8,398 nt of DNA from a virus (taxonomy: Duplodnaviria > Heunggongvirae > Uroviricota > Caudoviricetes), in the IMG/VR virus record IMGVR_UViG_2703719367_000013, one strand, 5' to 3'. Made by a program: the position numbers. Each line of letters starts with the position of its first letter. Position 1 is the first letter of the stretch. This document shows, piece by piece, positions 1-6,000 of the stretch.

Positions 1-3000
1 TTAACTTCCGGAGCCACACCGGTGCAAACCTCAGCCAGCAGGGTGTGGAAGTAGGACATTTTCATGTCAGGCCACTTCTTTCCTGATCGGGGTTTTGCTA
101 TTACGTTGTGAATTTCTGAAGCTGTGATGACGCCGAGCCGTAATTTGTGCCACGCATCATCTCCCTGTTCGACAGCTCTCACGTCGATCCCGGTACGCTG
201 CAGGATAATGTCCGGTGTCATGCTGCCACCTTCTGTTCAGTGGCTTTTTGTTTCAGGAATCCAAGAGCTTTTACTGCTTCGGCCTGTGTCAGTTCTGACG
301 ATGCACGAATGTCGCGGCGAAATATCTGGGAACAGAGCGGCAATAAGTCGTCATCCCATGTTTTATCCAGGGCGATCAGCAGAGTGTTAATTTCCTGCAT
401 GGTTTCATCGTTAACCGGAGTGATGTCGCGTTCCGGCTGACGTTCTGCAGTGTATGCGGTATTTTCGACAATGCGCTCGGCTTCATCCTTGTCATAGATA
501 CCAGCAAATCCGAAGGCGAGACGGGCACACTGAATCATGGCTTTATGACGTAACATCCGTTTGGGATGCGACTGCCACGGCCCCGTGATTTCTCTGCCTT
601 CGCGGGTTTTGAATGGTTCGCGGCGGCATTCATCCATCCACTCGGTAACGCAGATCGGATGATTACGGTCCTTGCGGTAAATCCGGCATGTACAGGATTC
701 ATTGTCCTGCTCAAAGTCCATGCCATCAAACTGCTGGTTTTCATTGATGATGCGGGACCAGCCATCAACGCCCACCACCGGAACGATGCCGTTCTGCTTA
801 TCAGGGAAGGCGTAAATTTCTTTCGTCCACGGATTAAGGCCGTACTGGTTGGCGACGATCAACAATGCGATGAACTGCGCATCGCTGGCATCACCTTTAA
901 ATGCCGTCTGGCGAAGAGTGGTGATCAGTTCCTGTGGGTCGACAGAATCCATGCCGACACGTTCAGCCAGCTTCCCAGCCAGCGTTGCGAGTGCTGTACT
1001 CATCCGTTTTATACCTCTGAATCAATATCAACCTGATGGTGAGCAATGGTTTCAACCATGTACCGGATGTGTTCTGCCATGCGCTCCTGAAACTCAACAT
1101 CGTCATCAAACGCACGGGTAATGGCTTTTTTGCTGGCCCCGTGGCGTTGCAAATGATCGATGCATAGCGATTCAAACAGGTGCTGGGGCAGGCCTTTTTC
1201 CATGTCGTCTGCCAGTTCTGCCTCTTTCTCTTCACGGGCGATCTGCTGGTAGTAACGCGCCCAGCTCTGAGCCTCAAGACAATCCTGAATGTAATAAGCG
1301 TTCATGGCTGAACTCCTGAAAATGGCTGTGAAAATATCGCCCGCGAAATGCCAGGCTGATTAGGAAAACAGGAAAGGGGATTAGCGATTCAGGCCGTTAC
1401 CGCGTCCGTCGAGAAAAACTTCCACGAGCAAATCACGGGTATAAGTGCGCTCGATGCCGCGATGCAGATAAAGCCGTCCGCGTAAATTAGCTGATGCAGT
1501 CCAGGTACCATCTTTGTGTTTGACCAGCATTCCTGGCATGACCGCACCTCGATTAACGGTCTGCGTTCCGTAATGTTGATGAACCATAAAAACTCCTGCC
1601 CGTAAGCTGGGCTGCTGAACATATAGAGACTTCTGCGCGTATTCAGGCGGTGGATGGCCGCCGGTTGTCATAACTAAGTCGCCTCGTTGAAGCGACTGAG
1701 GTATGAAGTGTTGAGTTGATTTCAGCTGGTCACACCGACGTTCACGCGTCCGCTTCACCCCTCGCACTCCCCGGAGCCTGCTGAAATTCAAGCTGCGGAT
1801 CTAAGCGGTCATCGCAACGGTGAAGTTATAAATTTTGTGATACCAACATCGATGCAATAGCATGACAATAGCAATGGCTATTGGTGTGGTCAATAGCAAT
1901 TAGTATTGATAATGTTTGATATACTTGTTCTGATTGATAATTAAATGAATTTTTATAAAAAAGAGTATGAAGACTTATTGGTGTGGCTGAAATTTGTACA
2001 GCTTTAATGTGCCTCGTGACAGAGGGGCATCGGGTTGTGGTGAACTCGGTAGGTTGGCAGCAAATTTAATCGAATATTGGTAGTCTGAGTTCTTATGTGT
2101 ATTTTTTTAGTCAGTTGCTAAATGATACATAAATGACTTATTAGCCCCGCCATCGCTTTGTACGGGGCGTTTATTTAATTTATCTTTTCAACATTTCCAT
2201 GAATCAACAAGTCGTAGGCAAGAAATAGTTTCCTATACTGGGTTTTTAAATTGTCAACGTCGCATGCCTTGAATTGAACAAACGCTTCTTTTTTAACATA
2301 ATCTTCAATCTCCTCTTTGGGGATATTTTTTATGTTCTTAATGACTATAGACAATTCTTTGTACTTTTTGAACGTTGCATCCTTTATATCTTTGATGTTG
2401 GTGTAAATTTTATTTGCATTGATTTTATCTAAGGTGATTTTATTGAGCAAGTCGTCTAGTTTTCCGTGGCGTTCAATGCGTTGATTTAGTTTTAACACAT
2501 ATTTAGCTGGCAAACTTAACTCTTTCAAATTACATGAGGTTATAGTTTTTGAAAATGGAAGTTGTAATGAGTTTACTGAACCTAATATGAAATCTATGGC
2601 TAATTTATTAGATATTTCATTTTTATTAAATAAGTAGTCTTCAAGATAATTTATTTCTTTAACTTGTGTGAATACATACTTTTTATCGCCTAGAGCAACA
2701 ACTAAATTTTTTCCTTGTTTAACACTTTCTTCAAGTCTGTCTAAGTCAGAAGGTGAAACCAATAGAGTATCTAAGTGCCCTTTTTCACCCTCATTAATGA
2801 TAAGTGTTTTAATGGCTCTTTGATACCTTAAAACATCATAAGGTGAGAGCCCTTCATCAACAGCACTGATCTCATCATAGATCTGTTTATAGTTATCTGT
2901 TTTAACAGATGTATATGTAATTTGTAGCTGTTGATCGGTAATCTGTTTTGGTACTACTTCTTGTTCATTCTCTTTATATTCAATCAAAATTATTCTTTCA

Positions 3001-6000
3001 GCTGATTTTCGACCATCTTCTCTAGGTAGTTGTGAGGAAAAATCAGAAAGAAGTTTCTTTACATTCCTGTCAGTTAAAGAATATCCAAGAAAAACTATTG
3101 GATTTTTAATCATGTTAGATAGTATCTTGGCACTAATGAGTATAGATTTGTTGTCATATTTTTCGTAATCATCTTTATTTATGATTATTGAGTGTGGATC
3201 CTTTATATCACCATGGATTTTGTATAACTCACTCCATCCAATGGTATCTTCGAAAAAACCATTATTTCCAATATAGAGTTTTGGAGTTACATTTTGCTCT
3301 TGAAGTAAATTTTCTATGAAAGCATCATAATTTGTAGTGATGATTATCTTGGCCTTTTTTATTAATGTTTTAAATGATGCTAATTCATCAAGATTTACAT
3401 CCTTTCTGATTGTGTTATTAGAAAATCTTTGGCATATGGCGTATTTAAATGGTGAAATATCTTCACTAAAAACCCTCTTGGCATCTAGTCCATTTAATTT
3501 TAATTTGCCAGTCCTAAACAATAGATTGTAATCATTTTCAATTTTACTTGCTGCCTCTGTATAAATCTTATGATCGATATCATTATCACTGTTATTTTTA
3601 TGTGATTCTTTTATTGTTAAAAGATAACTATAGAAATCATTTGTGGGATTTGTTATTTTCCAATACTCGTTTAATAGCTCTTCCCACGTTGGGTAGTTCT
3701 CTAAATATCTTTTTGAAATGCCTGAGCCAATAAAGACTATTGGGTAATTTTTGAATTCAAAATTTTTTTTTGACATATCCATATACCTTAAGCTCTGCTT
3801 GAAACATCCATTCTATAAATTATGAGGATGTCAGCATGTCTCACCAAAACATCATCTGGTTATCTTGATGAAATCTGTCATTAATAATCTACCCATGTTT
3901 TCTATATGTCTGTGGCATGCTCCCAATAACTTTCCCAAATATAAATACCCGATTCATTTCGTCTTTTTCGATCGGGTCCCACGGTGAGTAGCTCTTGTTA
4001 TCAGAGATAACCAGCAGCTTATCCTTCATCATTTGCAGGCGCTTTACATGGGCTGTGTCGTCGTACAGAAACGCATAGATACCATCACCGTCGAAAGATT
4101 TAACAGTGATATCAACGAACAGAAGATCACCTGGTTCGATCGTTCCTGACATGCTGTCACCGCGTACGTTAATGATGCGGATATTTTCTGCCTTCCTGCC
4201 ATCGAACATGTGACGAGCATCGTCAAACGAGTACTCAACCGAGCGTAGGACTTCTACAAACTCACGGTTGATGACACCCGGCCCAGCACTGACTTCTATA
4301 TCAAGAACGTCAATCTTGAAGTATTTGGAATGGTTGACAGCAGGCTTCCCTGATTGTTGACCGTCATTTCTCATCGGGCCTATGCCTGATGAGAGCCACT
4401 CTGTTCGAACACCCAATGCATTAGCTATTTCAACAATTTTTGTTGAGCCGCGTGCGTTGCCGCTTGTCAGTCTCCAGATTGTGGGTTGAGCTACGCCAGA
4501 CGCCTTTGCAAGAGCGCCTTGAGACATTCCAGATTGTTCCATCGCTAGGTTTAAGCGATCAGCAAGAGTTTCTTTTTTCATAAGTTTTAATTTATACGCT
4601 TGCGTATTGATGGTCAAAACACGTTTTGCTATTGATTGGATTAATACGCATTGCTATTATCCATTCATTGTAATACCAATAGGAATTGATAATGACAAAT
4701 CAAACCATTCAACTCGCAATCAGTATTACAGGTAGTCAAAAACGACTGGCAGATCTATGCGGTGTAGCCCACTGTTTGGCGTTGGCTACACGGTGGCGGA
4801 ATTGATGCCCGCTATGTAATGAAAATTGTCTCAGCCACTGGTGGAAAGATTAAACCAGCAGATATTCGTCCCGACCTTGCACCATTGTTTAACGCGAGTA
4901 ATTCTGCCGCCTAAACTGCGGCGTTAACTGATAAGGCAATGATTATGCAACCACTTACATACCAACAGACTAGCGGATTTAGCCCGACTGCGGTGATAAA
5001 TCGTTCTCAAATAAAACAGGTGCCAGGCCACGAAAAAATCCGTGATGCCGTCCGCGCCTGGTCGGCTGTAGATAATCAGGATGTCGTTGCCACACTCATT
5101 GTGAATGAGTATCGGGAGCAGGGCGGCGGCACCATCGATTTCCCTGATGATGTCAGCCGTACACGCCAGAAGCTGTTCCGCTTCCTCGATAACAAATTCG
5201 ATTCTGAAAAATACCGAAATAACGTGCGTGAACTGACCCCGGCAATTCTGGCGGTACTACCGCTGGAATATCGCGGTTACCTGGTTGAGCAGGATAGCTT
5301 CATGGCTAGGTTGGCTGAAATGGAAAAGGAACTCAGTGAGGCAAAACAGGCTGTCATTCTCAACGCACCACGCCACCAGAAACTGAAGGAAATTAGTGAA
5401 GGTATTGTGTCGATGTTTCGTGTGGACCCAGAGCTGGCTGGTCCATTGATGGCGATGGTTACTACCATGCTGGGGGCGATATGACAGGTTCAGAAATGGC
5501 GAAAGCCGGTCTGCTGGAACAGAACCGACTTTCAGGTGCAAATCGTAACACACTCATTGCGGGAGGAATTATGGCAAACACTGCTGAGATATTCAATTTT
5601 CCAGTGCCGGATGCGGCACAAAAGGAGCCGCGCGTGGCAGATCTCGATGATGGTTATACGCGCATTGCAAATGAGTTGCTGGAAGCTGTAATGCTGGCCG
5701 GATTAACACAGCACCAGCTTCTGGTCTTCCTGGCTGTCATGCGCAAAACATATGGCTTTAATAAAAAACTGGACTGGGTGAGCAACGAGCAACTTTCCGA
5801 GTTGACCGGGATATTGCCGCACAAGTGTTCTGCTGCAAAAAGTGTTCTGGTAAAGCGTGGGATTTTTATTCAGAGCGGGCGGAATATCGGCATTAATAAT
5901 GTGGTCAGTGAATGGTCAACATTACCCGAATCAGGTAAGAAAAATAAAGTTTACCTGAAAGAGGTAAATTTACCTGAATCAGGTAAGAAAAGTTTACCCA

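Follow-up and report, generated by a model that had tools for sequence, protein, structure and literature searches.

The locus examined here raises the question of what a dormant virus expresses from the stretch between its repressor gene and its left operators (oL). It lies in a DNA segment of 8,398 nucleotides (nt) from a tailed phage (Caudoviricetes; IMG/VR record IMGVR_UViG_2703719367_000013), which was analysed over its whole length and is hereafter called the window. The stretch contains an open reading frame (ORF) of 535 residues (2175-3782, minus strand) that encodes a SIR2-family protein. The carrier is a prophage encoding Shiga toxin 1 (Stx1), and the gene is very probably a phage-defence gene expressed by the dormant virus. 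The account that we consider probable predicts a lysogen-expressed, single-protein abortive-infection NADase, a self-contained sensor and effector that would work like a half-size DSR2.

A preliminary description, made from the DNA alone, had reported this ORF on the cI strand with a 106-base-pair (bp) gap to the repressor gene, an A+T-rich composition against neighbours of about 50% G+C, and four collinear motifs, and all of these were recovered. The cI-like ORF ends at 3889, leaving the gap at 3783-3888; the G+C content is 29.7% in the ORF, 51.8% in the left flank (1-1824) and 47.1% in the right flank (3889-8398); and the translation shows, in the same order, VFIGSGIS (residues 16-23), ITTNYDAFIE (148-157), YKIHGDIKDPHSIIINKDDYEKY (187-209) and VFLGYSLTDRNV (230-241). 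RefSeq starts the protein at M3 (nt 3776), which gives 533 residues (WP_000038831.1, "SIR2 family protein"), and this is the probable true start since the AAGG Shine-Dalgarno spacing is better for it. A chance reading frame can be dismissed, given that full-length homologs number in the hundreds and that the ORF is kept, as a single chromosomal copy always at 99% identity or more, in 166 of 5426 complete E. coli genomes (3%), O157:H7 forming the majority of carriers. The window itself and the Stx1a-converting lambdoid prophage of E. coli O157 strain 644-PT8, integrated beside mlrA/yehV, share 99.95-100% identity. The module of cI, SIR2 gene and oL is also present, identical, in unrelated strains such as GE3 and EC93 (L097 and L098), within a different lambdoid prophage located at argU/DLP12 (intD ... 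emrE, ybcK). The immunity module is therefore common to two prophage backbones and two integration sites.

The N-terminal part of the protein (approximately residues 1-290; 2913-3782, minus strand) is a SIR2 domain. Search with the Pfam hidden Markov model (HMM) SIR2_2 (PF13289) matched residues 146-285 (E = 1.2e-23; 84.2 bits against a gathering cut-off of 24.5), in support of the SIR2_2-type assignment first made from motifs, while a NCBIfam search of the protein returned no match. The domain displays a Gly-rich loop (G19, G21, S23), N151 and D153, H190 and a GYSLTDRN motif, and carries a helical insertion (residues 33-143) at the place of the sirtuin zinc module. The segments that had been read as bearing the catalytic Asn and His do so: upon alignment to Bacillus cereus ThsA (6LHX), N151 falls on N112 and H190 on H152. 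Within a set of 47 family sequences reaching down to 40% identity, the residues G19, G21, S23, N151, D153, G191 and D238 never vary, and H190 is present in all members except one. When the profile of these 47 members was compared with solved structures, DSR2 was best (E = 5e-15), with ThsA and KomC close behind; profile positions 146-246 aligned to DSR2 128-230, N151 falling on DSR2 N133. The earlier label of a ThsA-type SIR2 protein was thus right as to SIR2 and too narrow as to ThsA, the core being equally close to DSR2 and KomC. With three cysteines and no CxxC pair, the protein lacks the sirtuin zinc module, and membership in the classical sirtuin deacylases was rejected, as the protein has neither the Zn-binding Cys4 module nor a sirtuin of that kind as closest fold match.

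The repressor gene (3889-4581, minus strand) encodes HTH_3 and Peptidase_S24 domains according to Pfam and RefSeq, the latter placing its start at the ATG at 4581 and not at the upstream TTG at 4617. The half-palindromic operator motif CAATAGCAATnnnTATTG, allowing up to three mismatches, occurs 10 times in the window against 0.45 expected, and these occurrences are confined to two clusters (1866-1914 and 4617-4694), which puts the SIR2 gene within the immunity region, with cI on one side and oL on the other. Motif and promoter scans delimit a left cluster of such repeats at 1865-1914, overlapped by a pL-like promoter (1893-1865, minus strand), and a right cluster at 4617-4694 with a pR-like site (4632-4660, plus strand) and a pRM-like site (4617-4589, minus strand), the latter just upstream of the cI ATG. 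The sister phage 4A7 shows the same operator layout. In lambda, rexAB lies between cI and oL, and cI, rexA and rexB are transcribed from the promoter pRM; the rexAB position that had been proposed for the SIR2 gene is indeed the one that it occupies, on the cI strand.

The spacer between cI and the SIR2 gene (106 bp; 3783-3888, minus strand) contains the AAGG ribosome-binding site, and in scans it showed neither a terminator-like nor a promoter-like site, its structure being unremarkable (z 0.07). Both genes are probably co-transcribed from pRM. Seven nt after the SIR2 stop, a G+C-rich hairpin (2144-2168, minus strand; folding free energy -16.2 kcal/mol, z -2.0) without a U-run may be a weak terminator ending the immunity transcript. 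From the SIR2 gene to oL (1915-2174) no ORF of 30 residues or more was found, those present having at most 29, and no antitoxin-like small ORF is adjacent.

Full-length homologs were detected at 60-75% identity in Enterobacterales and, in many Firmicutes, at 40-48%, a conservation across Proteobacteria and Firmicutes that indicates purifying selection. Their position beside lysogeny genes recurs. In Kosakonia and Morganella prophages the homolog is found directly 3' of an S24 repressor gene, on the same strand, next to replication modules that differ; in the Streptococcus phages SVep1 (induced by mitomycin C) and IPP23 it comes right after a cI-like repressor and before the integrase; in Streptococcus suis it is again between repressor and integrase; and in Listeria it sits in the lysogeny module, near an Ltp-type lipoprotein gene and a serine recombinase. 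In Bacillus velezensis it follows the lysis genes of a PBSX-like element. Neighbours were compared over 30 species-level loci with a crude longest-ORF gene caller, which misses genes below 60 residues and makes the repressor and integrase counts lower bounds. A recombinase was found within three genes downstream in at least 10 of these loci, and the upstream recurrences were HTH_3 (five proteins) and ImmA-type Peptidase_M78 (three proteins); DUF87/HerA was seen in one of 53 upstream proteins, and in one locus the neighbour is a type I restriction R subunit (HsdR). No neighbouring Pfam family occurs in more than seven of the 30 loci, and no TIR family recurs among them. The gene is thus a standalone one, with no conserved partner in the window or in these loci, as had been supposed; neither does the window hold a TIR partner, its other ORFs being ordinary lambdoid genes.

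Comparison with phages of the same immunity reveals an A+T-rich exchangeable segment (1825-3888), comprising the oL region and the SIR2 gene, in which unrelated cassettes are found. PhiR68_2 and 4A7 are 96-98% identical to the window over 1-1824 and 3889-7300, with cI identities of 96-97%, and wholly different across 1825-3888. The slot (3004-4420 in sister-phage record L014; 2948-4403 in L013) holds in 4A7 the two-gene PADLOC candidate PDC-M11A/B, made of a 353-residue protein and an ASCH-domain protein, and in PhiR68_2 a gene pair of 341 and 149 residues without PADLOC match. With the cassette as query, megablast found only cI and cro in the phage collection, and the phage-borne homologs were those detected by tblastn. 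The slot between cI and oL behaves as a site of cassette exchange.

Beyond the SIR2 domain, a middle region (residues 291-375; 2658-2912, minus strand) includes a segment at residues 335-371 (2673-2780; LVSPSDLDxLE...GKNLVVALGDKK) that ranks, apart from the catalytic core, with the best-conserved parts of the protein and falls below 50 in the predicted local distance difference test of AlphaFold, in full-length and C-terminal models alike. Speculatively, this candidate interface may be an oligomerisation or switch element. Activation by oligomerisation is plausible by analogy, because the nearest solved SIR2 domains (KomC, ThsA, Avs5 and FAM118B) come from helical or filament assembly entries. 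The C-terminal half is confidently modelled as an all-alpha solenoid (residues 376-535; 2178-2657, minus strand), family-specific and proposed here as the sensor, whose fold matches only generic solenoids. It is the least conserved part of the protein, with a mean pairwise identity of 35% against 66% for the catalytic core. Its profile found nothing significant in the PDB by sequence, no family in Pfam, and only 126 clusters among 1.84 billion representative proteins; all full-length matches share one architecture, approximately 510-545 residues long and matched at about residues 285-535. Since none of those representatives carries this module in another architecture, the idea of a promiscuous sensor domain common to several kinds of protein was abandoned; on these profile matches, the module is private to its SIR2 family.

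That family is already catalogued. The protein matches the PADLOC HMM PDC-S25 over its full length (E = 2e-235; residues 1-528 on model positions 1-526 of 528) and, also over its full length, PHROG 2695 (E = 3e-203), a PHROG without assigned function. As to the family, the earlier term "unrecognised" accordingly has to be corrected. The PDC families are 145 predicted candidates, each with at least one member situated within a BREX, DISARM or type I restriction-modification (RM) locus (Payne et al.), and PDC-S25 is named in one strain-survey preprint only, among the candidates predicted for a single O157:H7 strain. With SIR2 abortive-infection effectors, prophage-borne defences and the family as a candidate all known, novelty is moderate.

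The mechanism that we favour would run as follows. cI and the SIR2 gene would be transcribed together from pRM in the lysogen, and the N-terminal SIR2 domain would be an NAD+ glycohydrolase of the defence clade that includes ThsA, DSR2, KomC and Avs5, inactive in uninfected cells. When another phage superinfects, the C-terminal alpha-solenoid would recognise a protein made by that phage, by analogy with DSR2; recognition, possibly together with oligomerisation via residues 335-371, would free the NADase to act, leading to a collapse of NAD+ and an aborted infection. This scheme is supported by the fact that PADLOC picked the family independently, through guilt by embedding in the kinds of defence locus named above. 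We put forward, more tentatively, a bolder version: PDC-S25 would be a compact single-chain DSR2-like immune receptor kept in the repressor operons of temperate phages from Enterobacteria to Streptococci, its private alpha-solenoid directly recognising a conserved protein of competing phages and residues 335-371 driving the active NADase oligomer, and it would shape which phages, including therapeutic ones and other Stx phages, can infect Stx1 lysogens of O157:H7.

Other explanations have to be weighed against this defence function. A place in the repressor operon tells only of expression in the lysogen, morons there have varied functions, and the PHROG of the family has none assigned, all of which would suit a prophage accessory enzyme outside defence, altering host metabolism or the lysis-lysogeny choice via NAD-dependent protein modification, or acting against host defences. 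This is nevertheless improbable, as the family is also found embedded in the defence loci mentioned above and, in one case, beside HsdR, the sister-phage slot holds another PADLOC defence candidate, and the SIR2 subclade is of the defence type. Alternatively, the protein could be an orphan ThsA-like Thoeris effector, activated by a small-molecule signal from a TIR protein whose gene lies at another place in the genome. PADLOC ThsA models do match it (E = 1.3e-21) and solved ThsA structures are among the closest, but these matches are limited to the SIR2 core (model positions 106-218 of 478; residues 108-250 of the ThsA structure chain), the C-terminal half is all-alpha and differs from SLOG, no TIR family recurs in the 30 loci, and the gene travels alone on phages across phyla, so that this possibility is most unlikely.

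Several observations weigh against the abortive-infection NADase itself and lend substance to two further alternatives. The conserved Asn and His would equally serve a deacylase or an ADP-ribosyltransferase, and the protein could accordingly defend the lysogen without bulk NAD+ depletion, by ADP-ribosylating or deacylating a phage or host target or by making a signalling nucleotide. This is unlikely considering that the closest relatives by both sequence and structure are all NAD+-hydrolysing defence SIR2 domains, and that neither a zinc module nor a macrodomain partner of the SirTM kind is present. Co-transcription with cI is read solely from the missing predicted signals of crude scans. Among the homologs, those of IPP23 (L015, 3507-5098) and of Lactococcus phage BK5-T (23715-24914) are each annotated as two ORFs, which may reflect a split or decayed gene or else a sequencing frameshift; whichever the cause, the gene is not always kept intact. 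The window's own prophage also shows lesions. Its YdaS-like cro (4692-4914) has a 5-bp deletion after approximately nt 4767 relative to PhiR68_2 and 4A7, which leaves a 37-codon stub and is marked as a frameshift in RefSeq, and its O gene (5481-6200) has a net 169-bp deletion at 6171-6174 relative to 644-PT8 and both sister phages, which truncates the product to 239 residues instead of 339. Taken together, both lesions suggest that this Stx1 prophage cannot replicate, and because of them the near-identity among clonal O157:H7 genomes says little on selection for this copy. Finally, no functional study of any PDC-S25 member was found in the literature, including a search for the RefSeq accession; the defence screens and surveys consulted (Vassallo 2022, the Mordret 2025 preprint, a paper on S. 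thermophilus loci and a review of lactococcal abortive infection (Abi) systems) deal with other SIR2 systems and not with PDC-S25. The split copies and the lesions in cro and O would fit a toxin or addiction module, or decaying cargo without current function in a defective prophage. Such a reading is very unlikely, as the ORF is intact with all its catalytic residues, the same module is found in a backbone where cro (GE3 and EC93) and O are intact, full-length conservation extends across Proteobacteria and Firmicutes, and an antitoxin-like neighbour is missing.

Some further features of the window deserve mention. Between the pL-like promoter and kil (1381-1587), the region 1588-1864 contains no N-like antiterminator ORF. 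Conservation in the sister phages extends over its part from 1588 to 1824, which gives no Rfam match, and a scan of the whole window with Rfam gave nothing relevant, apart from one sub-threshold microRNA match; a nut- or put-like RNA element might lie within 1588-1864. The gene in the cII position (4939-5484), which follows the YdaS-like cro, encodes a YdaT-domain protein and is annotated as cII in one record; the same YdaT-after-YdaS arrangement is seen in the Kosakonia prophage whose SIR2 gene is 75% identical. Downstream of the replication genes, a second A+T-rich patch (7350-8100; G+C fraction 0.37-0.40) contains two small ORFs (7487-7735, 82 residues; 7779-8060, 93 residues), neither of which matched any PADLOC model, and may be another moron.

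The interest of the SIR2 gene rests on its location in an Stx1 prophage, on its repressor-adjacent position across phyla and on its private sensor-like domain; it is less surprising than first thought, the kind of effector being well established and the family already a candidate. If the protein is active, a minimal SIR2 sensor-effector of some 530 residues would join the NAD+-depleting defences with a new recognition domain, and its trigger could be mapped by escape mutants. Lambdoid phages, in their cI-oL slot, and phages of Gram-positive bacteria, between repressor and integrase, would then share a general site for exchangeable defence cassettes. Activity could also affect phage biocontrol and therapy as well as the superinfection dynamics of Stx phages, considering that the gene is carried by the Stx1 prophage of O157:H7 and by 3% of complete E. 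coli genomes.

Regarding known systems, the gene resembles lambda RexAB in its slot between cI and oL, its cI strand and its presumable transcription from pRM in the lysogen. RexAB is a two-protein abortive-infection system with a membrane component, whereas the window encodes one protein with a predicted enzymatic effector, without kinship in sequence or domains: no RexA or RexB homology was found, SIR2_2 is the only Pfam match of the protein, and the gene stands alone. ThsA of Thoeris shares a related SIR2 core, and its SLOG domain is an alpha/beta ligand-binding fold. The earlier view that the C-terminal half is not a SLOG domain agrees with ThsA HMMs and structures matching the SIR2 part only, with the all-alpha model and with the lack of any SLOG match to that half; lacking the SLOG/STALD domain and an adjacent ThsB (TIR) gene, the protein was rejected as a ThsA. 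KomC of Kongming works with KomA and KomB, and Avs5 carries a STAND NTPase. Membership in SIR2-HerA (Nezha), Kongming or Avs5 was likewise rejected, since HerA, KomA/KomB and STAND NTPase are missing from the protein and none of them recurs nearby. Lactococcal AbiH, described as a sirtuin-like Abi (PMC13064643), was discarded too, no PADLOC AbiH model being among the matches at E <= 1.

There remains DSR2 of Bacillus subtilis, also a single protein, with a SIR2 NADase at the N terminus and alpha-helical repeats in the C-terminal region. Its sensing of a phage protein is direct: the HEAT-like C-terminal domain captures the tail tube protein and thereby opens the NAD+ pocket (PMC11850899). Foldseek relates both proteins with E values of about 1e-9 and a target-normalised template modelling (TM) score of 0.6 for SIR2-only fragments, whereas whole chains superpose poorly (TM 0.2-0.37). 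The window protein is half the size (535 against approximately 1005 residues), its C-terminal half matches no part of DSR2 by sequence and resembles solenoids only generically in fold, and no DSR-named PADLOC model is among the matches at E <= 1. Membership in DSR2, defined by SIR2, MID and HEAT-like C-terminal domains, was hence rejected, as the SIR2 core alone matches in a protein of half the length. Even so, DSR2 is the closest working analogue of the SIR2 protein kept beside the repressor of this Stx1 prophage.

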